Assembly: GCA_022729915.1 (NCBI GenBank)
Contig: DZBP01000001.1
Location: 1,831 to 65,830, forward strand
DNA from: Draconibacterium orientale
GTDB taxonomy: Bacteria > Bacteroidota > Bacteroidia > Bacteroidales > JAIFNL01
Direction: 5' to 3'
Length of the DNA stretch: 64,000 bases
The number at the start of each line of letters is the position of its first letter. Position 1 is the first letter of the stretch. Positions 1,849 to 60,137 of this stretch are shown one piece after another. The position numbers and the translations under genes are program-made. The notes beneath the pieces are model-generated. The model searched no databases. It was not told the DNA's origin and saw only the letters and a program-made list of their open reading frames with translations.

Positions 1849-2193
1849 TTATGCAAATTTTTCATTTAAAATGCTAGTAATCTGAGCTTTCGATTGAATG
1901 CTGCTAGTTGCTTTCACAAGTTTTCCATTTTTGTAATATACTGTAAATGGTAAACCCATGAATGAAGAGCACTCAGGAGCATTTCTAATTACGTGAGCCT
2001 CAGGGCTATCAAAAGTCATGTCGTAAAATGTCACATGTGGATATTCGTCTTCCAAATCTTCCATAATGTCATATACTGGAATACACATCGGTCCCATACG
2101 TCCACAGCAAATCATTACGTTTTCATTGTTATTTACTACTTCATTGTGCTGAGCAGCAGTTGCAATATGCTTTAAATTTGTTCCTAATACCAT
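1849..2193 (-). CDS. thioredoxin-fold protein with a non-canonical CGRMGPMC motif; likely co-transcribed with trxB
   Basis: 114 aa, 65 nt upstream of trxB on the same strand. Thioredoxin-like length and a C-terminal GLPFTVYYKNGKLV (cis-Pro region). It has CCGRMGPMC where WCGPC is expected. Confidence 0.6.
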   Translation of the reverse strand: MVLGTNLKHIATAAQHNEVVNNNENVMICCGRMGPMCIPVYDIMEDLEDEYPHVTFYDMTFDSPEAHVIRNAPECSSFMGLPFTVYYKNGKLVKATSSIQSKAQITSILNEKFA

Positions 2194-2235
2194 TTTTAAT
2201 ACGTTTTAATATTAATATATCTAAATATTTAGATG

Positions 2236-2266: not shown

Positions 2267-2296
2267 ATTTATTTTCTTAATAAAAGTTAAGTAAAT

Positions 2297-2401
2297 AAGC
2301 ACCAGTGCTATTTTAATTTTAGTAAACCTTTTTGTAATCAAATAAATTTTAAGCACATGGCTAAATAAAATATACAATTTAATTTGGCTTACTACTTATA
2401 A
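2297..2401 (+). repeat. Intergenic element family, copy A (hairpin plus promoter-like module)
   Basis: Ungapped alignment with 45201-45305 gives 90/105 identical positions (hand count). It starts with hairpin AGCA-CCAG-TGCT followed by a T-rich run. It ends with ACAATTTAATTTGGCTTACTACTTATAA. Confidence 0.85.
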
Positions 2402-2448: not shown

Positions 2449-3480
2449 TTATTTACCAATTTTTGTGCTTAACGAAAAATGATTAGAAGCACCTGCTACA
2501 TGATAAGTAGCGCGCCCATAAGCAAGCTTGAAACGAGATAAATTTAGCCCAAAACCCCAAGAAAAGCCTGTCATTCCTCCAATTTGTTGTAATGAAAGCT
2601 CCATTCTGCGTTGGTGATTGTAGCTAAAGTTAAAATAAAAGCTTTCAAAGGGGACAAATTCAATTCCATAAACCAAATGACGTAACAAATTATCTGAAAA
2701 TTTACTTATTTCCGTCTTTTCTTTCGGTTCTTCGTTAAAAATATTCGATGTAGTTGATTCAAGAGGCGATTCAAAGCGCAAATTCCAATTTTCGAGATGA
2801 TTGTAAGTTATATTGAAGCGAAAAGGTGCATGTTCGAGCTCTTTTGTAATACCCAATTGTATTTCAAATGGTAATTTTTCGCGATTATTTTCTGTATAAG
2901 TAGTTAATTGAGTTCCAACATTTTTGATAACAAAAGCAATATTTGTAAAATGCTTTTTGTTTACATACAAAACTCCCGCATCGATGGCAAAACCAACAGA
3001 AGAGTAGTTTTCTAAATTTGACACAACTGGCTTAAAATTAACCCCATACGAAATAGAGTTGGTTAGTTTATTAGCCCAAATAAAATTGAAAGCATATTCA
3101 GCAGCTTTAAAATTGCTGAGTTTCTCACCAAATTCGTTGGCTTCGATAAATTCACCATAGTTAATATATTGAATACCAATAGATAAATTCCCAATTCTTT
3201 TAAATTTTCGAGCATAAGCCAAATAGCCGTAATTTATATCAGCAAAATAGTTTACATAGTTCAAAACCAAATTGTTGCGCATGGTATCCGAAAGCAAAGC
3301 CGGATTATGATAAGTCAGTGCTAAATCAACTTCATTCATAGAAATAACGTTTCCACCCAGTGAAGCCATTCGTGCTGAATTAGTAAGAGTAAGAAATTTA
3401 TATGTATGATTTCCACCTATTTGCGAAAAAACAAAAATTGGAAAAAGCATAAAAATTAAACAGATTTTATATTTGGTCAT
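2449..3480 (-). CDS. porQ: PorQ-like type IX secretion system outer-membrane beta-barrel protein
   Basis: 343 aa. It has a signal peptide, then GGNHTYKFLTLTNSARMASLGG, which resembles the conserved PorQ N-terminus as I recall it. Alternating beta-strand pattern throughout. Confidence 0.55.
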   Translation of the reverse strand: MTKYKICLIFMLFPIFVFSQIGGNHTYKFLTLTNSARMASLGGNVISMNEVDLALTYHNPALLSDTMRNNLVLNYVNYFADINYGYLAYARKFKRIGNLSIGIQYINYGEFIEANEFGEKLSNFKAAEYAFNFIWANKLTNSISYGVNFKPVVSNLENYSSVGFAIDAGVLYVNKKHFTNIAFVIKNVGTQLTTYTENNREKLPFEIQLGITKELEHAPFRFNITYNHLENWNLRFESPLESTTSNIFNEEPKEKTEISKFSDNLLRHLVYGIEFVPFESFYFNFSYNHQRRMELSLQQIGGMTGFSWGFGLNLSRFKLAYGRATYHVAGASNHFSLSTKIGK

Positions 3481-3495
3481 TTGTATTTACAAAAT

Positions 3496-3545
3496 TAATA
3501 AGTAGTGAACCAAAATTGAATGGATATATAATTTTTCTAAGTACT
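3496..3545 (-). repeat. Intergenic element family, partial diverged copy D (inverted); doubles as the porQ-like promoter region
   Basis: Positions 3496-3515 (TAATAAGTAGTGAACCAAAA) match the reverse complement of the copy B end in 17/20 positions. The CTTAG-N24-GG spacing is the same as in copies A-C. The -7-like CAATTTTG (minus strand, 3518-3511) lies about 30 nt upstream of the ATG at 3480. Confidence 0.5.
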
Positions 3546-3918
3546 TGAAAGTTATTAGAAAGCAAAATTCATTGTTGCTAATAAAAAGAACACCGATAGT
3601 TAAATTACATTATGCAAATTAATTAAAATAAATGCTTTTTACCAAATTAATATTTCAATGAATTTAAAAATGCAGATAGTTTTAATTTTTGCAAAAATGT
3701 ATGTTTTTTGTTTTTTTTATGATTTTAATATAAATCCTTAGGAATAAGTATTTTATTAAACTCTATTAGTGTAAATTTAACCTTATTTGTTTAAATTTTA
3801 AAATATTAAATTTTAAAATAAGTAAAATTTGTGAAATTGCAAATAAGAGTTTTAATTTGTATTTCAAAAATTGAATTTTAAAGCTTTACAAAATATAAAC
3901 AATATTTCGAAAATTCGT

Positions 3919-11104: not shown

Positions 11105-12289
11105 ATGAAAAAAAATAAATTTTTAGTTAATAAAAATGGTTTCTACGGTGAATTTGGTGGTGCATATATTCCCGAAATGCTTTATCCAAATACAGAGGAA
11201 TTACGTAAAAATTATTTGAAAATTATTGCTTCAAAGAAATTTAAAAAGCAATTTAAAATGTTGTTAAAGAGTTATGTAGGCAGACCAAGTCCTTTGTATT
11301 TTGCAAAAAGACTTTCCGAAAAATATAAAACTAACATTTATTTGAAACGAGAGGATTTGAATCATACCGGCTCCCATAAAATAAATAATACGATTGGTCA
11401 AATTTTATTAGCGCAAAAGCTTGGTAAAAAGCGAATTATAGCAGAAACTGGAGCAGGTCAGCATGGTGTAGCAACTGCAACTGTTTGTGCTTTAATGGGT
11501 TTAGAATGTAAAGTTTATATGGGAAGTATTGACATTCAACGACAAGCACCTAACGTAGCACGTATGAAAATGCTCGGTGCGGAAGTTATTCCAGCTACAA
11601 GTGGAAGTAAAACCTTGAAAGATGCTACTAATGAGGCTATTAGAGATTGGATTAATAATCCTGAAGATACTCATTATATTATTGGTTCAGTGGTAGGTCC
11701 GCACCCTTATCCAGATATGGTAGCTCGTTTTCAGTCAATTATAAGTGCAGAAATAAAAAAACAGCTAAAATCTGAAGTTGGTAAAAAAAATCCAACACAT
11801 GTTATAGCGTGTGTTGGTGGTGGAAGCAATGCTATTGGAGCTTTTTATCATTTTTTGGATAATCCTAACGTTCAACTTATTGCTACTGAAGCTGCTGGCT
11901 TAGGCATCGAAAGCGGAAAAACAGCTGCTTCGATTGCAAAAGGTAAGCCCGGAGTTATACATGGAAGCAATACATATTTAATGCAAACAGTTGATGGACA
12001 GATAGTTGAGCCTTATTCAATTTCTGCTGGATTGGATTACCCAGGTGTAGGTCCTATTCATTCTCATTTATATAAGGAAAAAAGAGCTACTTATTTGAGT
12101 ATTAACGATAAAGAAGCTGTTGAAGCCGGTTTTTTGCTTACAAGACTTGAAGGTATTATCCCAGCTCTTGAGTCAGCACATGCCGTAGCAGCGCTCGAAA
12201 AAATGAACTTTAAGCCAGACGATATTGTAGTAATAAATATCTCAGGTAGAGGCGATAAAGATTTAGATACTTATATGAAATATTGTTAA
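11105..12289 (+). CDS. trpB: tryptophan synthase beta chain
   Basis: GEFGGAYIPE and the PLP lysine motif HTGSHKINN. The ORF track starts at TTG 11072. ATG 11105 (MKKNKF...) fits the usual N-terminus better. Confidence 0.93.
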   Translation: MKKNKFLVNKNGFYGEFGGAYIPEMLYPNTEELRKNYLKIIASKKFKKQFKMLLKSYVGRPSPLYFAKRLSEKYKTNIYLKREDLNHTGSHKINNTIGQILLAQKLGKKRIIAETGAGQHGVATATVCALMGLECKVYMGSIDIQRQAPNVARMKMLGAEVIPATSGSKTLKDATNEAIRDWINNPEDTHYIIGSVVGPHPYPDMVARFQSIISAEIKKQLKSEVGKKNPTHVIACVGGGSNAIGAFYHFLDNPNVQLIATEAAGLGIESGKTAASIAKGKPGVIHGSNTYLMQTVDGQIVEPYSISAGLDYPGVGPIHSHLYKEKRATYLSINDKEAVEAGFLLTRLEGIIPALESAHAVAALEKMNFKPDDIVVINISGRGDKDLDTYMKYC

Positions 12290-30591: not shown

Positions 30592-33018
30592 ATGTTTTAT
30601 AGATTTTTTTTTCGAAATTTACTTTTTTTATTGGTACAATTATTCATTTTAGTTGGTTTTTCAACAACTTCTTTTGCACAGGGCGTAGAAGAGGAAAAAA
30701 AATTTAGACAAATTGATAGTCTTTCTATGCTTTTTGCAAAAGCACCAACCGATAAAAAGAAAATTACTTATTTATTGCAACTAGCTGAATTACATAGCGA
30801 AACTGATACAATAAAGGCAAAAAATTACTTGAAAAAAGCAAAAACATTAGCAGATTCGATACAGCAAAATTCTTATTATGCATTGTATTACAACCAAATA
30901 GGAATTTATTATCGCCTTCAAAAGCAATATTTAAAATCAAAAAAATTCTACGACAAAGCGATGGATTTGGCACTTAAAGCCAAAAATGACACTATTTTGG
31001 CAGGCGTATATTTTGAAATGGGGCGTTATTTTATTTTGCAAAAAGAAATTGATGCCTCTATCGAAATGCATAAGAAGGCATTAGAAATTAGAATAAAATA
31101 TAAAAATCGAAAAAAAATTGGCGAAAGTTACAATGCGGTAGGATTAATGTATCTGAAGAAAAATGACTACGTTTCTGCCCAACCTTATCATATAGAATCA
31201 TTGAAGATTAAGCAAGAATTGGTAGATAAGGAAGGAATTGGAATGGAATACAATAATCTTGGAACGATATACATGAAGTTGAATAATTTTCCTATTGCAC
31301 TGGATTATTTTAGAAAGAGTATAGAAGTTTCTAAGGAATTGAAAAAAATTGATCAACAAGTGAGAGTTGTCGGAAATATTGCTGGAATTTATAGATACAA
31401 TGGCGAAAATGAGAAAGCCTTAGAGTACTATCAAGAAGCGTTGGAGCTAGCTAAAGAGGAAGGTGATGATAAACTTATAAGAGATGCTTATTTGAATTTA
31501 GGTATTTCCCATAAAGATTTAGGAAATTACAAAAAGGCATCGGAGTATTTTGAAAAAACATTGAAAATGACCGATATAAAGGTTAAAAACAATAGCCTTT
31601 CTTTGGTTTATCGCAACATTGGCGATATTTATTATTTGCAAAAAAATTACACACAGGCTTCGCCTTATTATAAAAAAGCGTTGGAAATAGTAGAAATTGG
31701 TGGTACTTCCGATTTTATAGCTTTTACGCATTACTGTATTGCAAAGCTTTATTTTGATGCAAATAAATTGCAAAGTGCAAAAAAAGAAGCAAATATAAGT
31801 ATTGAGTTGTCGCGTAAATTTGGATTTCACGTTTTTGAAAAAAATGGAATTGCTATTTTAGCACAAATTGAGTTTGCCAATAAAAATTATAAAGAAGCTT
31901 TTAAGCTATTGTCGAGAGCTGAAGAAATGAAAGATTCGATAAATAGAGAGCAGAAACACAAGGAATTAGCAGATTCGAGAGCTATATTTGAATCGGACAA
32001 GAATAAGGAAAAAGCTGAAATATTAGCTGCCAAAGATAGAGAAAATACTATAAAGTTAGAGGTTGCAGCAACTAAAAGTAAATTACAAAATTGGATTATG
32101 GGTTTTATTCTTGTAACCATTGTAGGCTTGGGAATTTTTATTATTGTAATTACAAAGAAAAATAAAGTAGTAAAAAAATCACAAATAGAGCTGGCTGCAA
32201 AAAATATTGAAATTCAAAGCAAAAAAGAAGCATTAGAAAAAACACTTTCTGAGCTTAAAATAGCTCAAAACCAATTGATTGAATCAGAAAAAATGGCATC
32301 TTTGGGTAACCTGGTAGCTGGAGTTGCGCACGAAATGAACACACCTATTGGAATTGGTGTGCAAGCAAATTCTGGAATTTTGAATCGTACTATCCAGATT
32401 ATCAGCGATATAAAAACTCAAAATATTAGCAAATTGAATATGCTCAAATACATAGAACATACCTACGAATCGAGCAAATTAGCTCTTTCAAATCTGCAAA
32501 GAACTGCCGAATTAATTAAAAGTTTCAAACTAGTTTCGGTCGATCAATCGGTTGAAAATGTTAGGAAATTTAAAATATTGGAGTATTTTAATGAAGTACT
32601 AATCAGCTTTAGTTCAACACTCAAAAAGCAAAATATTGAAGTTGAAATTGACTGCAACAAAGATTTAGAAATTAAAAGTTACCCGGGCGCATTTGCACAA
32701 ATACTTACAAATTTAGTAATCAATGCATTAAACCACGGATTTAAAGACAAAACTGACGGAAAAATACATATAACTGTTAAAAAAGAAGGCGAAACTTTTT
32801 TTATGACTTTTAGTGATACCGGAAAAGGAATGACTCCCGAGGTTTGTACTAAAATTTTTGACCCATTTTTTACCACCAACAAACAAACTGGAACCGGCTT
32901 AGGCTTGCACATTACGTACAATCTTATAACTCAAAAACTTAAAGGAAATATTTCATGCGAATCTGAAGTTAATATTGGCTCTACATTTCATATTACATTT
33001 CATGAATTTGCTGCTTAA
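30592..33018 (+). CDS. TPR-repeat sensor histidine kinase (orphan)
   Basis: 808 aa. Signal/TM segment, about 10 TPR-like repeats, a TM segment near residue 510, a coiled coil, an H-box AGVAHEMNTPIG, and an HATPase_c domain (N-box INALNHG, G-boxes DTGKGM and GTGLGL). Confidence 0.85.
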   Translation: MFYRFFFRNLLFLLVQLFILVGFSTTSFAQGVEEEKKFRQIDSLSMLFAKAPTDKKKITYLLQLAELHSETDTIKAKNYLKKAKTLADSIQQNSYYALYYNQIGIYYRLQKQYLKSKKFYDKAMDLALKAKNDTILAGVYFEMGRYFILQKEIDASIEMHKKALEIRIKYKNRKKIGESYNAVGLMYLKKNDYVSAQPYHIESLKIKQELVDKEGIGMEYNNLGTIYMKLNNFPIALDYFRKSIEVSKELKKIDQQVRVVGNIAGIYRYNGENEKALEYYQEALELAKEEGDDKLIRDAYLNLGISHKDLGNYKKASEYFEKTLKMTDIKVKNNSLSLVYRNIGDIYYLQKNYTQASPYYKKALEIVEIGGTSDFIAFTHYCIAKLYFDANKLQSAKKEANISIELSRKFGFHVFEKNGIAILAQIEFANKNYKEAFKLLSRAEEMKDSINREQKHKELADSRAIFESDKNKEKAEILAAKDRENTIKLEVAATKSKLQNWIMGFILVTIVGLGIFIIVITKKNKVVKKSQIELAAKNIEIQSKKEALEKTLSELKIAQNQLIESEKMASLGNLVAGVAHEMNTPIGIGVQANSGILNRTIQIISDIKTQNISKLNMLKYIEHTYESSKLALSNLQRTAELIKSFKLVSVDQSVENVRKFKILEYFNEVLISFSSTLKKQNIEVEIDCNKDLEIKSYPGAFAQILTNLVINALNHGFKDKTDGKIHITVKKEGETFFMTFSDTGKGMTPEVCTKIFDPFFTTNKQTGTGLGLHITYNLITQKLKGNISCESEVNIGSTFHITFHEFAA

Positions 33019-33166
33019 AAAGTTGCGAATCAAGCTTATATATTAATTTTACTAAGTACTTAATATTTATTTGATTACAGAAATATTTTCTTTGAGTAAA
33101 ATAGTAGTAATGAATATTTATTAAGGCAAAAAATTATAATTAAAAAAACTAACATTATCCAAAAAC

Positions 33167-43020: not shown

Positions 43021-45090
43021 GTGAGTTTTTTATATCCTTCATTTTTATGGGCATTATTAGCCGTTAGTATTCCGATAATTATCCATTTATTTAATTTTAG
43101 GCGATACAAAACTGTTTATTTTAGCAATCTTATTTATTTGCGAAACATTAAAAAAGAGACCAAATCTAAGTCGCAATTAAAACATTTGATGATTTTATTG
43201 GCTCGAATTTTTACCATTATTTTTCTAGTTATAGCCTTTGCACAACCATACAAACCTGCAAAAAACAATAAAAATGATGTAAATAATGCGGCAGTTGCTA
43301 TTTATATCGACAATTCCTTTAGCATGGAAGCACAAGCTGAAGAAGGGGCTTTATTCAATATTGCTCAAAACTCTGCTATTCAAATACTTAATTCGTTTCC
43401 GCAAAATACACAGTTTTATATTATCACAAACGATTTTGAAAACAGCCATCAACATTCGTTTTCGCGCGAAAAAATGTTTGACTTACTTACAAAATTAGAA
43501 ATCAGCCCCAAAGTAAAAACGCTGTCGGATATTTTGGTTCGTGCAGATGACATAATGGCAGAAAATTTAGAAAATTCTAAAAAATCGAATCGTTTTTTGT
43601 TTGTCCTTTCCGATTTTCAAAAATCGAGTGCTAATTTCACACAACTTTCAACAGATTTGAACATCGAAACTTATTTTTTGCCTCTTAAATCGGCTCAGGT
43701 GAATAACTTATATATCGACTCTGTATATTTTGAATCACCTGGCAGAAAAATTAATCAGGCAGAAAGTATAAACATTAAACTTGTAAATAAATCAAATGAA
43801 AACTATCAAAATATTCCGGTAAAACTTTCTATAAATGGAATGCAAAAAGCAATTACAACTTTTTCAATTTCAGCAAATTCTGAACAAACGGTAAAACTTT
43901 CGTTTACGAATCCGACCACAGAAATAGTTAACGGAAGAATAGAAATAACCGATTACCCAATAGTTTTTGATAATACATTCTATTTCAGTTATGTAATTTC
44001 ACAAAAAATTGAAATACTCGAAATCTTTGAGCAAAATCCAAACAAATACATTACTGCTTTATACGCCGAAAATGAGAATTTAAATTTGAAAAATATTGGA
44101 ATACAACAAGTTTCGATTTCCGATTTTCAGAATTATCATTTAATAATTTTGAGCGAAGTAAAACAATTGTCGTCAGGAATTGCAAATGCGCTTAAAGATT
44201 TTGTTTCGTTGGGTGGTACATTGCTTATTTTGCCTGATTTTACTAGCAATTTAGAATCTATAAATTCTTTTTTGACAGAAATAAATCAGGCAAAATTATT
44301 AAAACTCGATACACTAAATACCGAATTAAAAAATGTAAATTTGGAAAGTGAGTTGTATAAAACTTCTCTGAAATCGTTCAAAAACGATGTAAAGTTACCA
44401 GTTATTGATAAATATTTTAAGATTTCGGAAAACAATAAAAATTTAGCTCTGCTGACTGCAAAAAATAATTCGGTTATTTTGTCAGAAAGTTACTTAGGAA
44501 AAGGAAAATCCTTTCTTTTTGCAATTCCATTTTCTAAGGAATCCGGTAATTTTATTAATCACAAATTATTTGTACCAACCTTGTACAATATTGCACTTTA
44601 TAGTCAAAATACTTCAGAAATATATTACACATTAGGAGAAAATAATCTGGTAGAAATTTCTATTTCTCAAAATGAAGATTTTCAGGTTATGCACGTGCAA
44701 AATTTAGATAAAACTTATGATTTTATTCCTGAAGCTATTAAAAAACCAGAAACAAATCTGCTTCGAATAAATTTTTACGACAATATTAAAACAGCAGATA
44801 ATTATTTATTGGTTGAAAACGACAAATTACTTGGGACTGCAAGTTTCAACTACAATAGAGCAGAGTCGATAATGGATTTTTATACTGAAGATGAGCTATT
44901 TGCTTCGGTTCAAAAATTAGGAACTGACCGAATGAAAGTATTTAAATCGAATGACAAATTTATCGAAGAAACGCTTTCCGAATTTTCAAAAGGTAGTAAA
45001 TATTGGAAATATTTTTTACTTTTAGCTCTATTAACTTTGGCGGCAGAAATTTTGCTAATTCGTATTAAAAAACCACAAAATAATTTATAG
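43021..45090 (+). CDS. BatA-N-terminal-domain (aerotolerance regulator N-terminal) membrane protein
   Basis: From GTG 43021 the protein starts VSFLYPSFLWALLAVSIPIIIHLFNFRR, the canonical BatA_N opening. It has a second TM segment and a C-terminal TM. The ORF-track start at 42883 would overlap the upstream gene by 122 nt. Confidence 0.65.
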   Translation: MSFLYPSFLWALLAVSIPIIIHLFNFRRYKTVYFSNLIYLRNIKKETKSKSQLKHLMILLARIFTIIFLVIAFAQPYKPAKNNKNDVNNAAVAIYIDNSFSMEAQAEEGALFNIAQNSAIQILNSFPQNTQFYIITNDFENSHQHSFSREKMFDLLTKLEISPKVKTLSDILVRADDIMAENLENSKKSNRFLFVLSDFQKSSANFTQLSTDLNIETYFLPLKSAQVNNLYIDSVYFESPGRKINQAESINIKLVNKSNENYQNIPVKLSINGMQKAITTFSISANSEQTVKLSFTNPTTEIVNGRIEITDYPIVFDNTFYFSYVISQKIEILEIFEQNPNKYITALYAENENLNLKNIGIQQVSISDFQNYHLIILSEVKQLSSGIANALKDFVSLGGTLLILPDFTSNLESINSFLTEINQAKLLKLDTLNTELKNVNLESELYKTSLKSFKNDVKLPVIDKYFKISENNKNLALLTAKNNSVILSESYLGKGKSFLFAIPFSKESGNFINHKLFVPTLYNIALYSQNTSEIYYTLGENNLVEISISQNEDFQVMHVQNLDKTYDFIPEAIKKPETNLLRINFYDNIKTADNYLLVENDKLLGTASFNYNRAESIMDFYTEDELFASVQKLGTDRMKVFKSNDKFIEETLSEFSKGSKYWKYFLLLALLTLAAEILLIRIKKPQNNL

Positions 45091-45126: not shown

Positions 45127-45163
45127 ACATTGCCAAAGATTTTTGCTTTGGCAATGTTTTTTT
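45127..45163 (+). terminator. intrinsic terminator after the BatA-N gene
   Basis: 12-bp stem ACATTGCCAAAG / CTTTGGCAATGT with a 7-nt loop, followed by TTTTTTT. Confidence 0.8.
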
Positions 45164-45200
45164 AGAATCACCTTTTTACTTATTTGAAAATTAAAGTTTT

Positions 45201-45305
45201 AAGCACTAATGTTATTCTATTTTGAGCAAGTCTTTTTGTAAACAAATAAATTTTAAGCACTTAGCAAAATGAAATATACAATTTAATTTGGCTCACTACT
45301 TATAA
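45201..45305 (+). repeat. Intergenic element family, copy B
   Basis: 90/105 identical to copy A (2297-2401) with no gaps. The 3' 74 nt are 68/74 identical. Same hairpin position, with the G-C pair changed to G-T. Confidence 0.85.
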
Positions 45306-45398: not shown

Positions 45399-45827
45399 CT
45401 ATTTTTTTACTTTAAGTACTTCTGTAATCGCTTTTACCAGTGTTTCTTTAGGCAAAGCACCTTGTGCCATTTGCGGTTGCCCCGTTGCAGGAATAAATAA
45501 AATGCTTGGAATGCTAGTAATTCCAAAGGCTGCCGACACTTTTCGTGCGTTTTCGGTATTGACTTTGTAAATTATTAATTTGTTTCCATATTCCTTTGCC
45601 AACTGGTCTAAAATAGGAGCAACTTTTTTGCAAGGTCCACACCAATCGGCATAAAAATCAACTATTGCCGGAGTTTTTCCTAAGTATTTCCACTCAGTGT
45701 CTTTGTCATAATCAAATACTAATTTTTTAAATGTTTCGTCAGTTAAATGAATTGTTTTTTGTGCAAACAGGATATTTGTAAAGCTCAAAAAAGCGATTAT
45801 TATTGCAATTTTTTTCATACCTATCAA
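45399..45827 (-). CDS. exported thioredoxin (signal peptide, WCGPC)
   Basis: 142 aa. N-terminal signal-like MKKIAIIIAFLSFTNILFAQ, then a thioredoxin domain with DFYADWCGPCK. Confidence 0.88.
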   Translation of the reverse strand: MIGMKKIAIIIAFLSFTNILFAQKTIHLTDETFKKLVFDYDKDTEWKYLGKTPAIVDFYADWCGPCKKVAPILDQLAKEYGNKLIIYKVNTENARKVSAAFGITSIPSILFIPATGQPQMAQGALPKETLVKAITEVLKVKK

Positions 45828-50790: not shown

Positions 50791-51987
50791 ATGAACTATA
50801 AATTTTTTTTGAAAAGTATTTTTACTATTGCCTTATTTGCTGCCATTTTTTCTTGCAACGACCTAACGGGTTCCGACAAAAAAGAAAAAAATGAAGACAG
50901 TTTGAAAATTCAAGACGATACCATTAATTTGGCGAACTACGATAGGTATTTTAACGATGTAGCACGATTTTATGCAGGTGTTAAACAAATAGAAGGCAGT
51001 ACTTTACAAGCAACAGATACAAATGCAGCTTGGAAAAGACATCACAACGACTTTACAATTTTTTACGATAGCATAGAAAGAACTTGGTTTCCACCAATTG
51101 TAAAATTCAGAAATAAAGAACTTTACGACGTAAATAAAGAAATAAAAACGTTGTACTATCCTTTTAGCGGTCCAGACTTTGTTCATGCCGATTTATTTTT
51201 TCCAAATGCCGAGAATATTATTATGATTGGTTTGGAAAGAGTTGGCGATGTGCCAAAACTGAGCGATTTGTCCGATGCTCGCATGGATAAATTTTTTAAA
51301 GCGGTAAGAATTTCGCTCGATTCAATCTTCACTTTTGGCTATTTTATGACCAATGACATGAACAAAGATTTCTCAAGAAGTCTTGAATTGCGAGGAATTA
51401 CTCCTATTCTAATGCTTTTTATGAGCAAAGCCGGCTACACAGTGCTTGATGTGGACAAAATAACCCTTGACAAAAAAGGCGAAATTGTTCCAATAACTGA
51501 TAAAACTAAGTGGATTGACCAGCCTTTTGATACCTATATTGCAGGTGTACAGATAAAATATTATAAGCCGGGTAATAATAAAATACGAACTTTATCCTAT
51601 TTCTCACACGATGTTTCGAGCAAAAACATTGCCAAAACTCCTGAATTGATAACTTGGCTTAAAAAACAAGAAATTAATGTAACTTTCTTAAAAGCAGCAT
51701 CTTACTTAATGGGTTCTTTTACCGAAATGCGTGATGTAGCCCTTACAAAAACAAAATATTTGTTTCAGTCTGACTCTGGAATTCCAATTCGTTATCTTCC
51801 TGAAAACCAATGGGAATCTAAATATTATGGCAAATACAAACGCACAATTGGAGTATTTCGCTGGGCATTTCAACCCAAATTAAAAGAAATTTACGACAAG
51901 GGAGTAAATGTAACTCCTTTAGAATTTGGTATTTGCTACGGATTTCGCTACAACGAATCTAACTTGATGCTTGCAAAACGAAAATAA
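50791..51987 (+). CDS. conserved lipoprotein of unknown function (paralog 1)
   Basis: 398 aa. Lipobox AAIFSC. It shares long collinear blocks with the next gene: YDR.YND, YPFSGPDF, FFPNA, GLE.VG, FFKAV, GYFMT, VTFLKAASYLMG, DSGIP, LEFGI.YG and SNLMLAK. Confidence 0.7.
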   Translation: MNYKFFLKSIFTIALFAAIFSCNDLTGSDKKEKNEDSLKIQDDTINLANYDRYFNDVARFYAGVKQIEGSTLQATDTNAAWKRHHNDFTIFYDSIERTWFPPIVKFRNKELYDVNKEIKTLYYPFSGPDFVHADLFFPNAENIIMIGLERVGDVPKLSDLSDARMDKFFKAVRISLDSIFTFGYFMTNDMNKDFSRSLELRGITPILMLFMSKAGYTVLDVDKITLDKKGEIVPITDKTKWIDQPFDTYIAGVQIKYYKPGNNKIRTLSYFSHDVSSKNIAKTPELITWLKKQEINVTFLKAASYLMGSFTEMRDVALTKTKYLFQSDSGIPIRYLPENQWESKYYGKYKRTIGVFRWAFQPKLKEIYDKGVNVTPLEFGICYGFRYNESNLMLAKRK

Positions 51988-52090
51988 GCACAAATGCTTT
52001 TTAATAGAGTAAATATTTTTGCAAACATCTAATTTTAAAATGCTTAGCAAAATAAAAAACGAATTTAATTTTGGCATACAACTTAATTAA
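51986..52090 (+). repeat. Intergenic element family, diverged copy C (terminator hairpin plus promoter between the paralogs)
   Basis: Collinear with copies A and B, with indels. It has hairpin AAGCA-CAAA-TGCTT followed by TTT directly at the paralog-1 stop, then TTTTTGCAAAC, then GCTTAGCAAAAT, and a perfect TAATTTTG (-7) at 52066-52073, about 52 nt upstream of the paralog-2 ATG. Confidence 0.6.
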
Positions 52091-52124: not shown

Positions 52125-53333
52125 ATGAACAAAGCTAATTTGCTGATAATCTTTTTGTTGTATTTTGTTGCTTTGTCTGTATCTTGCACAAATACACAAG
52201 AAAAAGAAAACAAAAACGAGGATTCAACTCTTGTAGAGAAAAAAGAAGGAATAGATTTAACAAAATACGACCGTTTTTACAACGATGCAGTTCGCTTGTT
52301 GGCTGGGTTACCTGCTGAAGAAGGAAGTCAGTTAATGAATTTGGATACCAATAAGTTATGGAAAGAGCATCAAGAAAAATTTGGCAGTTTTTTTGAAAAT
52401 ATTTTGGCTGAAAAATACCCTAAAGTATATGAATTTCAAAAAGAAAATTTAAAAGAAGCAAACGACAGTTTGAATACACTTTTTTATCCATTTAGTGGTC
52501 CTGATTTTATTTATTCAAATATTTTCTTCCCTAATGCTAAAAAGACAATTATGCTTGGCTTAGAACCCGTTGGTAATATTCCTAACCCACAAGAAATGAA
52601 AGATTCTGAGCAAGTTATCAAGTTTTTTAAAGCTGTTGATATTGCAATGGATTCTGTTTTTCGATTGGGATATTTTATGACTTTTGAAATGGGACGTGAT
52701 TTTAACCGAGTAGTTGAGTTAAATGGCACAATGCCAATTATTTGCATCTTCATGGCACAAACCGGACATAGAATATTGAATATTGAGCGTTTAGCAATAA
52801 ATGACAATGGAGAATTGGTAAGCGCTGTAAAAGAGAGAGATATAGACAGTCCAAAAGACGATTATGTTTCAGCCGGACGTGTAACCTACATGAAAGAGGG
52901 CGACCTTGAACCACGCGAATTGGTTTACATTTCGCACGATGTTTCAGCAGAGCATTTGAAAACGTCTCCTGGTTTTATGAAGTATTTGAATACACTTGAT
53001 GTTGATGTAACATTCTTAAAAGCAGCATCTTACCTTATGGGCTGGATGGATCACATGCGCAATTTTTCACTTGAAAAATCAGATTATGTTTTCCAAGACG
53101 ATTCCGGAATTCCTTATCATTATTTCGATTCTACAAAATGGGATTTCCAATTTTGGGGAAAATACCAACGTACTTTGAAGGTTTTTAAACCAAATTTTCA
53201 AGCTGATTTGCAAAAAATTTACGCTACACCCAATATGGCAAAACCTCTTGAATTTGGTATTGGTTACGGAATTCGAATCAATCAGTCGAATTTAATGTTG
53301 GCAAAAAAAAATAAGCTGGTAAAAATAATATAA
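52125..53333 (+). CDS. conserved lipoprotein of unknown function (paralog 2)
   Basis: 402 aa. Lipobox LSVSC. It is collinear with 50791-51987 over the full length; I estimate about half of the residues are identical. Confidence 0.7.
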   Translation: MNKANLLIIFLLYFVALSVSCTNTQEKENKNEDSTLVEKKEGIDLTKYDRFYNDAVRLLAGLPAEEGSQLMNLDTNKLWKEHQEKFGSFFENILAEKYPKVYEFQKENLKEANDSLNTLFYPFSGPDFIYSNIFFPNAKKTIMLGLEPVGNIPNPQEMKDSEQVIKFFKAVDIAMDSVFRLGYFMTFEMGRDFNRVVELNGTMPIICIFMAQTGHRILNIERLAINDNGELVSAVKERDIDSPKDDYVSAGRVTYMKEGDLEPRELVYISHDVSAEHLKTSPGFMKYLNTLDVDVTFLKAASYLMGWMDHMRNFSLEKSDYVFQDDSGIPYHYFDSTKWDFQFWGKYQRTLKVFKPNFQADLQKIYATPNMAKPLEFGIGYGIRINQSNLMLAKKNKLVKII

Positions 53334-58146: not shown

Positions 58147-59307
58147 CTAAAATTGGCGACCAAAATGAAATTCAGCCAGCGGGAGTGTAATATTTGTTGC
58201 ATCTGAAATTGCTTTTTGGTTAAAAACGGCACCAATTGTAAGCCTTTGCACAAATTTTTGCTTACCCAAGCGTTCAACACCGATGTTTGTACCTATTGAT
58301 ATTCCGTGCCGCAAAATCATATTTAATTCTGAAATAAAAAATACATTTTTATTGCCAAATTTTAAATTGTAAGCAACGCCTGGAAATGTTTCAAAAAGCA
58401 GATAATTTGCTAAATATCCTCTTAATGAGTGCATTACTTGTCTTTTAGCAAGCAAATATTCGTAACTTATTCCAAATGGAAATCCAACTGAAAACAGAAC
58501 TGTATTTTTATGATTTTCAATCGGTTCAAAATTTTCTTTTGCAAAATTAAACGTTGCTTTTCCGATTAAGCTGAAGTACTGAAAATTAGAATTATAAAGC
58601 GGTGATGCTTTTTGAAAACCATATATGTAAGTAGGTGATAGTGAAACAGACAGTATTTTTGTAAGTTGCAAAGCTAACTTAAGATTTAGATTTAAGCCTA
58701 GTGCATTTTTGTCGATATTTTGTGAATAATAGGTAAATAATTCGGTATAATCTCCATATCTGTTGTAATCATAAATTTCTTGTTTTAAGTGCAAAATACA
58801 TATTCCTGGACCAAGGTTAACTTTTAATTTTGGGAAATCTAAAAATGAATAATTCAGATTAAATAAAATGTATTTATCATTGATTTTTAATGATTTGTCA
58901 GAAAAACTGTAACCATAATAAGCTTGAGTTGCTTCATTGTATAAAATAGTGCTATAAAGTAGAGTATTTTTATATAGTGCATACTCTTCTATATTGTTGG
59001 TTATTAGCGATATATCTACTGAAGATTTGCTGTTAAGGATATAAGAAAACACAAATTCGAAGTTTGGAGTTTTTTCTTTTTCATAATTACTTTGGTTTGG
59101 AATATCCAGCTTATAGCCAGCTATTTGGCTGTTATAAAAAACATTTCCTATGCTCAAATTAAAACCTACTCTATCTTTCGCTTCCAGTTCTTGCGCTAAA
59201 GATATATTCTGCAGAGAAATAAATATTAATAGGATTAAAAATAAATTTAAAATTTTATTTTTGGTAAAAATAAAATACGGGCTTATTTTTATTTTATAAT
59301 TTCTCAT
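58147..59307 (-). CDS. predicted outer-membrane beta-barrel protein, unknown function
   Basis: 386 aa. N-terminal signal-like segment ending in AQE, alternating strand pattern, and a C-terminal F. Confidence 0.45.
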   Translation of the reverse strand: MRNYKIKISPYFIFTKNKILNLFLILLIFISLQNISLAQELEAKDRVGFNLSIGNVFYNSQIAGYKLDIPNQSNYEKEKTPNFEFVFSYILNSKSSVDISLITNNIEEYALYKNTLLYSTILYNEATQAYYGYSFSDKSLKINDKYILFNLNYSFLDFPKLKVNLGPGICILHLKQEIYDYNRYGDYTELFTYYSQNIDKNALGLNLNLKLALQLTKILSVSLSPTYIYGFQKASPLYNSNFQYFSLIGKATFNFAKENFEPIENHKNTVLFSVGFPFGISYEYLLAKRQVMHSLRGYLANYLLFETFPGVAYNLKFGNKNVFFISELNMILRHGISIGTNIGVERLGKQKFVQRLTIGAVFNQKAISDATNITLPLAEFHFGRQF

Positions 59308-59465
59308 TTGCTTAGATTTATTTAATTAAAAAAAACGAAATAGTAAAAAGTTTGTTTGTAATTTATTAATCTTAAATACGTAGTAAAAAAAAATTTTAAA
59401 GTAGACTGCAATATTATCGTTAACGGGTAGTATTTTGGTATCAGTAGTTAAATAATAAAAAATAT

Positions 59466-60137
59466 TTATTCCGCTATTTTATTAAACTTATATAAATTTA
59501 TAATTTCATTACGAGTGTAATTTACAATTTCTTTATTTACTATCTCTTGTACTTTTTCGGGTTTAATTACATCTCCTAGTCTAATTATTACTTTTCGGGG
59601 TTTAATCCGCCAAGTTCCAACAGGCATAAGTTCTTGAAAACCAATAAGTGCAACAGGAACTATGGACGCTTTTGCTTCTTGTGCAAGCATAAAAGGTAAA
59701 CGTTTAAATGTTCCAATTTCACCGGTTTGGCTGCGTTTGCCTTCTGGAAAAATGACGTATGATTTCCCACTTTTCATTATTACAGCTGCTTTTTTAATGC
59801 TTAATAATGAATCCTTTAAGCTGTTTGGGTTGATAGGAATGTTACCCGCAATTTTTAAGAATTTACCATAAATAAACCAGTTAAAATGAAAATCGATTTC
59901 AATTCCTCTTAAATAAACTGGTAAAAAAGCATGCAATGTAAATCCATCAAAAAAACTTTGATGATTCGGAATAAATACATAGTTTTCATTTTTGTCGAGC
60001 TGTTCAATTCCATCAACTAGTACTTTTACAAACAGCATTTTTATTACTATTCGAAAAGCAATTTTAAGAAATTTATCCATTTTATTGTCAGTAATAAAGT
60101 ACGACAATAAAATGGTTAAAAGCATGATAATCAGCAT
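59466..60137 (-). CDS. plsC: 1-acyl-sn-glycerol-3-phosphate acyltransferase
   Basis: 223 aa. N-terminal TM segment, HX4D (NHQSFFD), FPEGKRS, and a proline-containing block (IVPVAL). Confidence 0.8.
   Translation of the reverse strand: MLIIMLLTILLSYFITDNKMDKFLKIAFRIVIKMLFVKVLVDGIEQLDKNENYVFIPNHQSFFDGFTLHAFLPVYLRGIEIDFHFNWFIYGKFLKIAGNIPINPNSLKDSLLSIKKAAVIMKSGKSYVIFPEGKRSQTGEIGTFKRLPFMLAQEAKASIVPVALIGFQELMPVGTWRIKPRKVIIRLGDVIKPEKVQEIVNKEIVNYTRNEIINLYKFNKIAE

Follow-up and report, generated by a model that had tools for sequence, protein, structure and literature searches.

The window analysed here, a contiguous 64-kb stretch of Bacteroidota DNA with a GC content of 30.5%, contains five copies of a dispersed, non-coding repeat of 105-110 bp. 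The copies form a repeat family with sharp boundaries, are present or absent at orthologous sites in related genomes, and carry promoter-like sequence reading outwards from their 3′ third; folding and covariation analyses found no RNA structure in them. We consider it probable that these repeats are small, non-autonomous MITE-like mobile elements, which bear a putative promoter and decay independently of each other.

A family of dispersed repeats

Positions 2297-2401 and 45201-45305 of the window align without gaps at 90 of 105 positions, with 68 identities in the 74 nt of the 3′ part. Recounting the alignment returned exactly the values that had been obtained by hand in the original prediction. 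In 100 local shuffles of the window, the top-scoring ungapped alignments with copy A over 105 nt had 54 identities on average and at most 58 of 105, so the similarity of the two stretches is far above what AT-rich DNA would be expected to give. Repeat finding together with an nhmmer profile located five copies in the window (E-values from 1e-28 to 1e-15), and beyond these no window position scored with E < 0.01:

Copy A, 2296-2401, plus strand, full length, TAAGCAC...CTTATAA
Copy B, 45200-45305, plus strand, full length
Copy C, 51985-52090, plus strand, about 69% identical to copies A and B
Copy D, 3495-3602, minus strand, full length, diverged
Copy E, 33013-33122, minus strand, decayed, with the -7/TTTGG part lost

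All four copies described at the outset are real, and copy E had been overlooked. Copy C had been placed at 51986-52090; the relative exists, in a register starting at 51984/51985 (63 of 105 identities at 51984, 40 of 105 at 51986). Copy D, reported as an inverted and partial match at 3496-3545, is indeed inverted but extends over the full length of the element. The element has no coding capacity, and each of the five window copies is intergenic, the sole overlap being that of the last few bases of copy E with the end of a histidine-kinase ORF.

Copies A and D flank the same gene. ORF 2449-3480 (minus strand) encodes the T9SS protein PorQ (NCBIfam NF033711, E = 9e-112), whose best named homologues are proteins from Bacteroidales or Bacteroidota MAGs with ∼50% identity. 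Copy A occupies the spacer between the porQ stop codon (2449, minus strand) and the promoter upstream of a 114-aa thioredoxin-like gene, which is followed by trxB, and its promoter-like end is directed towards the 3′ end of porQ. Copy D lies directly upstream of the porQ ATG (3480), inserted after the conserved ancestral porQ promoter TTAATTAATTTGCA. Copy B is positioned between two convergent genes, a BatA-like gene ending at 45090 and a thioredoxin gene ending at 45399. Copy C starts on the TAA stop codon of a gene for a 398-aa lipoprotein and ends 35 nt before the ATG of a 402-aa paralogue, and copy E, on the opposite strand, separates a TPR histidine-kinase gene from RecQ. No transposase gene was found among the 38 window ORFs scanned; the other window ORFs, including those at 56-64 kb, were annotated only via synteny with the related contigs L013 and L016.

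Two of the neighbouring loci can be described further. The 114-aa ORF upstream of trxB (1849-2193, minus strand) is weakly thioredoxin-like (TIGR01068, E = 0.002, far below cutoff), and its synteny is kept in all relatives examined. The tandem paralogous lipoproteins (50791-51987 and 52125-53333, ∼400 aa) have no Pfam family, and their homologues number in the thousands, including proteins from Microscilla and many cyanobacteria.

Copies outside the window

We scanned a 596-Gb genome collection as well as metagenome and viral collections with a 21-base degenerate core of the element. The genome scan and the metagenome scan returned four stretches each; by profile scoring, three of these eight are true loci (L005, L011 and L009) and the other five are weak or chance matches. 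Viral contigs contained no match to the 21-base degenerate core, and BLAST against plasmids and phages found no match to the element. The L005 copy is located upstream of an adenosine deaminase gene (add), and the neighbouring proteins identify L019 and L020 as the same add locus on longer contigs. A relative, L016, which shares ∼79% nucleotide identity with the window between 51.4 and 63.9 kb, has a copy of its own. The original prediction had allowed for the case that only the window copies exist, with none in relatives; instead, there are four further loci on other contigs, namely the add locus (L005/L019/L020), L011, L009 and L016. Contigs L001-L003, L005, L011 and L021-L023 terminate inside or at the element, a behaviour expected of a multi-copy repeat in short-read assembly. 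Exact-protein look-ups lead to the runs SRR404114, SRR1559353 and SRR1560849 and to JGI 3300000235/236, 3300033420 and 3300033516; for sites B and C, they returned no record of population variants. The record names SulCav_PC08, TB_PC08_3 and TB_FS08_3 suggest, from the names alone, that the samples come from sulfidic caves.

Several features of the non-window loci stand apart from the repeat family itself. Horizontal transfer from a host of higher GC content had been considered for the add locus, as add in L005 has a GC3 of 0.40, above that of any window gene; this idea was withdrawn, the 10-kb contig L019 having 31.9% GC overall and a gene GC3 of 0.14-0.38. The two add-locus alleles (L019, 2150-2500, and L020, 1050-1400) are the same sequence from 6 nt to the left of the element onwards to the right, but beyond that point on the left they are unrelated; there, L019 contains a low-GC GmrSD defence gene. 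Only four differences separate L019 and L020 in ∼290 aligned nt, and these cluster in the -7 box and the 3′ end of the element, which suggests that gene conversion, or selection on the promoter, may have acted there. In L009, a 102-nt insert (722-823) represents a second, classical MITE nested in the -7 region of the element. The subterminal inverted repeat of this insert is perfect over 16 bp (ATGTCGTTTAGTTAAG / CTTAACTAAACGACAT), and a 7-nt direct repeat, GGTTCAC, flanks it.

Filled and empty orthologous sites

Comparison with relatives reveals the same intergenic regions with and without the element. The gene order glutaminase / porQ / 114-aa gene / trxB is conserved in L012 (PorQ 80% identical) and L013-L015 (64%), and in these relatives the element is absent from sites A and D. 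At site A, porQ and the 114-aa gene are 255 nt apart in the window, 155 nt apart in L012 and 125 nt apart in L013; the alignment with the relatives covers the thioredoxin-like promoter and leader and extends to the left end of copy A. At site D, the conserved block ATATTAATTTGGTAAAAAGCATTTATTTTAATTAATTTGCA and the porQ ATG have 31 nt between them in L012 but 131 nt in the window, and copy D makes up the difference. The window is thus longer by ∼100 nt at each of these two sites. The spacer between the lipoprotein paralogues (site C) is 137 nt long in the window compared with 27 nt in L016 and 42 nt in L017, both of which lack the element; the L016 protein neighbouring this site is 93% identical to that of the window. 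Site B likewise has a spacer of 308 nt in the window and of 119 nt in L017, the latter without the element. The reverse case is found in L016, where a copy lies upstream of a 383-aa gene and the syntenic spacer of the window (59307-59466) is devoid of the element. Thus A, C and D are each empty in two relatives, and one further site has a copy in L016 but not in the window. Because two outgroups lack the element at each of A, C and D, insertion in the window lineage is the parsimonious reading. The upstream region of add in an 89% relative (L024/L025) could not be aligned, and hence no empty site can be defined for that locus.

Family structure and ends of the element

Copies A, B, L005 and L011 are 83-93% identical among themselves, whereas the decayed copies (C, D, E, L016 and L009) share 58-71% identity with each other and 62-80% with the former group (65-80% with A, B and L005). 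This star-like pattern is expected of a common source followed by independent decay. The left and right ends (TAAGCAC...CTTATAA) are constant in at least seven copies despite differing flanks, which argues against ragged “solo ends” of a larger element. A comparison of the left 30 nt with the reverse complement of the right 30 nt did not reveal terminal inverted repeats above shuffles (p = 0.5). A 7-nt TAAGYAS motif is found at the left end, in the center (direct) and at the right end (inverted) of the element; in copy A, TAAGCAC occurs again at 2350-2356, 54 nt downstream, and inverted as TAAGTAG at the right end. This motif may or may not represent a binding site.

TA (or TAA) is invariant at both junctions in eight of nine copies and could equally be element sequence. 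The empty sites D (in L012) and C (in L016) are compatible with a TA, TTA or TAA target, again as a duplication or as element sequence alike, and a TA target duplication is thus possible. None of the fetched loci contains a parent IS with the same ends. We discarded an IS200/IS605-style model, assessed by eye: no specific target of 4-5 nt is common to the left flanks, and the left hairpin reaches right up to the boundary.

MITEs are defined as AT-rich, non-coding sequences of ∼50-600 bp (PMC6382973). The element is small, AT-rich and non-coding, occurs in dispersed copies with the same ends, and has filled as well as empty sites; as it lacks significant terminal inverted repeats, we call it MITE-like in behaviour rather than a strict MITE. 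We infer that the element spreads by transposition in trans. In the mechanism that we propose, the AT-rich intergenic DNA of an uncultured Bacteroidota lineage with low GC content would receive the insertions, and the inserted copies would then decay independently.

The inverted-repeat result also bears on another origin of the family, which we regard as unlikely: the element could be a “putative mobile promoter” copied from one intergenic region to another through gene conversion or recombination, or it could be a solo end left from a larger IS or island, and no transposase-mobilised MITE would be involved. Ends without significant inverted repeats fit this account, as do the L019/L020 alleles, which place the element at a recombination or island boundary and whose four clustered SNPs in the -7 box suggest conversion; elements of this kind with unknown mobilisation have been described (PMC3575422). 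Solo IS ends, however, would be ragged on the inside, whereas both ends are constant in at least seven copies, and copies C and D are clean ∼100-nt additions between conserved flanks. Moreover, about half of the copies (A, B, E and L011) are upstream of no gene. A MITE-like element remains our preferred reading.

A promoter-like module in the 3′ third

The primary sigma factor of Bacteroidetes recognizes a consensus of TAnnTTTG at -7 and TTTG/TTG ∼19 nt upstream, near -33 (PMC7366714). The 3′ third of the element contains TTG or TAG, followed by a spacer of 18-19 nt (16-19 nt over all copies scored) and by TAnnTTTG, reading outwards, and hence looks like a promoter of this geometry:

Copy A promoter-like module, 2357-2386, plus strand, ATG at -33, 19-nt spacer and TTAATTTG at -7
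Copy B -7 box, 45283-45290, plus strand, read from the sequence
Copy C -7 box, 52066-52073, plus strand, perfect TAATTTTG

The L016 copy has the same perfect TAATTTTG at -7 as copy C, and the L005 module consists of TTG, 19 nt and TAAATTTG. Six of the six specified bases of the -7 box are present in C, L016 and L005/L020, and five of six in A, B, D, L011 and L009. The -33 position is TTG in L005, L011 and L009, TAG in B, C, D and L016, and ATG in A. This geometry explains the order of parts noted originally, in which TTAGC or ATGGC is followed by 24 nt and then GG; the spacing, taken to be constant, holds for copies A-D when counted on the aligned sequences, but is 22-23 nt in L016 and L009. 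Among the window's own genes, a strict TTG-N18-20-TAnnTTTG pattern yields 13 matches compared with 5.2 expected, one of them at the thioredoxin-like gene. A sigma-70 promoter scan is uninformative here, since these organisms use a different promoter type. Judged by its sequence, the element promoter would be active.

In five of nine loci (C, D, add, L016 and probably L009), the module is directed at a gene on its own strand; in the remaining four (A, B, E and L011), it points at the end of a convergent gene or at nothing. Its orientation relative to genes therefore looks random. The promoter in the 3′ third would read out of the element, with its effect set by chance orientation: a sense insertion would add a promoter before porQ, the 402-aa lipoprotein gene, the adenosine deaminase gene or the 383-aa gene of L016, and in the opposite outcome copies A, B and L011 would fire towards the 3′ end of a convergent gene. 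At add and porQ, which both have their own promoters, the element promoter may be redundant.

The add gene is preceded by a perfect TTG-19-TATATTTG promoter, located ∼45 nt upstream of its ATG (L020, ∼1340-1375; same in L005). The add leader contains, immediately ahead of the start codon, a hairpin (AATGAGTAT...ATACTCATT) and a T run. This gene would thus have its own proximal promoter and, possibly, an attenuator-like leader.

Perfect -7 boxes occur in three of five sense-oriented copies (C, L016 and L005) versus none of the four copies not facing a gene, a difference that is not significant (p ∼0.17, Fisher estimate) and gives a weak hint of selection for better -7 boxes in sense copies. A bolder view builds on this hint. 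Lacking inverted ends, the element would be a mobile promoter cassette that moves by a new route, for example through an enzyme reading the three TAAGYAS motifs (left end, center and inverted right end). It would be active at present in uncultured Bacteroidota, which to judge by record names come from sulfidic caves, and its gene-upstream copies would be selected for better -7 boxes. We find this view quite unlikely, and continue with the MITE-like reading.

RNA, terminator and thioredoxin readings

The original prediction had offered four identities for the element, of which a MITE-like repeat and the promoter half of a terminator-promoter cassette agree with our analysis; the other half of the cassette (the terminator), a small RNA gene and a regulator-binding platform do not. 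The 5′ palindrome AGCAC-CA-GTGCT (2298-2309, plus strand) effectively forms a 4-bp hairpin. Described as AAGCA-N4-TGCTT and as common to all copies, this hairpin is found in A, B, C and L005 and is degraded in D, E, L016 and L009, and in no copy is a pair altered on both sides, as a compensatory change would require. A G-U pair in the same stem had been taken as a hint of plus-strand function; resting on 4 bp, it carries no weight.

An intrinsic terminator has a G+C-rich stem of 5 bp or more with a T run behind it. The terminator scan made no call at the 5′ hairpin of copies A, B, C and D and called 45127-45157 as genuine. The 5′ hairpin is therefore not terminator-grade, and it is not conserved in the decayed copies. 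The called sequence is a strong bidirectional terminator with a 12-bp stem, located between the BatA-like gene and copy B, and is the sole terminator-like call in the scanned regions.

Folding of both strands is not above shuffles (z-scores of -1.65 to +0.92). The RNAalifold prediction contains zero pairs for either strand, there is neither covariation nor a consensus structure, and Rfam returned nothing relevant for the whole window at the gathering threshold or for three element-bearing loci at E ≤ 1. These results weigh against a family of small RNA genes, be it the element itself or a short transcript from its 3′ promoter, as do the sequences downstream of the promoter-like end, which are unrelated between copies. 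Hairpins do occur within ∼50 nt after A, B and L011, so that short transcripts could form, and copy B lies between convergent genes, where there is no mRNA to serve; yet the downstream hairpins are plausibly terminators of the convergent genes. We consider a small RNA family very improbable.

A cis-regulatory platform, that is, the promoter or operator of a regulon (e.g. thioredoxin/redox) with a dimeric regulator bound at AGCACnnGTGCT/TAAGCAC, appears equally improbable. It would account for the 12-bp palindrome at the 5′ end, for the second TAAGCAC 54 nt downstream, and for the two copies adjoining thioredoxin-family genes, whose distances had been given correctly (∼31 nt separate copy A from the -33 TTG that precedes the 114-aa gene, and copy B and the thioredoxin stop codon are 94 nt apart). 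However, the palindrome is lost in D, E, L016 and L009, and orientation relative to genes is random-looking. Copies A and B are directed away from, or lie downstream of, the thioredoxin genes. Relatives without the element keep the porQ / thioredoxin-like / trxB synteny along with the thioredoxin-like/trxB promoter and a 22-nt invariant leader, and the genes adjoining the other copies are functionally unrelated (porQ, lipoprotein, adenosine deaminase, and histidine kinase with RecQ). The thioredoxin association suggested originally is thus not supported, and we read it as coincidental.

The 22-nt sequence AAATATTTAGATATATTAATAT (window 2209-2230, minus strand) lies just downstream of the -7 box of the 114-aa gene/trxB operon. 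It is identical in the window, in L012 (∼1542-1563; 80% relative) and in L013 (∼11122-11143; 64%), while the adjoining bases vary. It contributes to a perfect 16-bp palindrome, ATCTAAATATTTAGAT, in both the window and L012. AAATATTTAGATATATTAATAT is probably an operator or leader signal of the redox operon, separate from the repeat.

Comparison with known repeat families

The closest analogues of the element are Correia elements and MITEAba12, which are likewise small, multi-copy and intergenic, with outward promoters. Correia elements have ∼26-bp terminal inverted repeats and an IHF site, and they duplicate TA; TA junctions are also possible in the element. Like the element, Correia elements (CREE/NEMIS, Neisseria) are ∼100-150 bp long, non-coding, multi-copy and intergenic, and their presence varies between related genomes. 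Their outward promoters are functional and rewire neighbouring genes, as cited in PMC3575422, whereas the element has promoter-like sequence only. The inverted ends of the element are not significant, it occurs in another phylum and has a Bacteroidetes -33/-7 promoter; the two are compared here by description.

MITEAba12 from Acinetobacter (111-114 bp) resembles the element in being AT-rich and non-coding, in its AT-rich intergenic targets and in its predicted outward promoters (PMC6382973). It has clear terminal inverted repeats matching those of the resident ISAba12 and 9-bp target duplications, recognisable duplications being kept in some copies only (PMC6382973); in the element, the inverted ends are not significant, the fetched loci yielded no parent IS, and any duplication would span at most 2-3 bp.

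Putative mobile promoters (Nijveen, Matus-Garcia, van Passel; PMC3575422) share with the element the occurrence of highly similar non-coding stretches in unrelated intergenic regions. They are, however, defined upstream of genes, whereas about half of the element copies are located elsewhere, and the gene-proximal copies C and D are just 58-71% identical to others. Within the same phylum, a non-autonomous Porphyromonas gingivalis MITE with the BrickBuilt minisatellite has reported promoter activity (PMC4596501); compared by description, the element lacks a minisatellite.

REP/BIME/REPIN and ERIC sequences are also dispersed intergenic repeats, but they are defined by stable palindromes, and GTAG and CGTC heads define two large REP superfamilies (PMC3733652). 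Unlike REP/REPIN sequences, the element does not fold more stably than shuffled sequence and yields no consensus structure. Small mobile repeats that bear promoters are an established kind (PMC6382973, PMC3575422). The sequence family described here is undescribed, and its kind, a promoter-bearing MITE-like dispersed repeat, would make it an ordinary genomic parasite.

Significance

Promoter-bearing MITE-like repeats are well known from other phyla, and the family opens no new biological question. On the practical side, short-read assemblies of these organisms break at the repeat, which could also be taken wrongly for a conserved regulatory RNA or for the signal of a thioredoxin regulon. If the MITE-like reading is correct, insertion would have placed an extra promoter-like module in the leader of the T9SS gene porQ and split a two-gene lipoprotein operon, and small mobile DNA would be rewiring transcription in a little-studied, uncultured Bacteroidota lineage.
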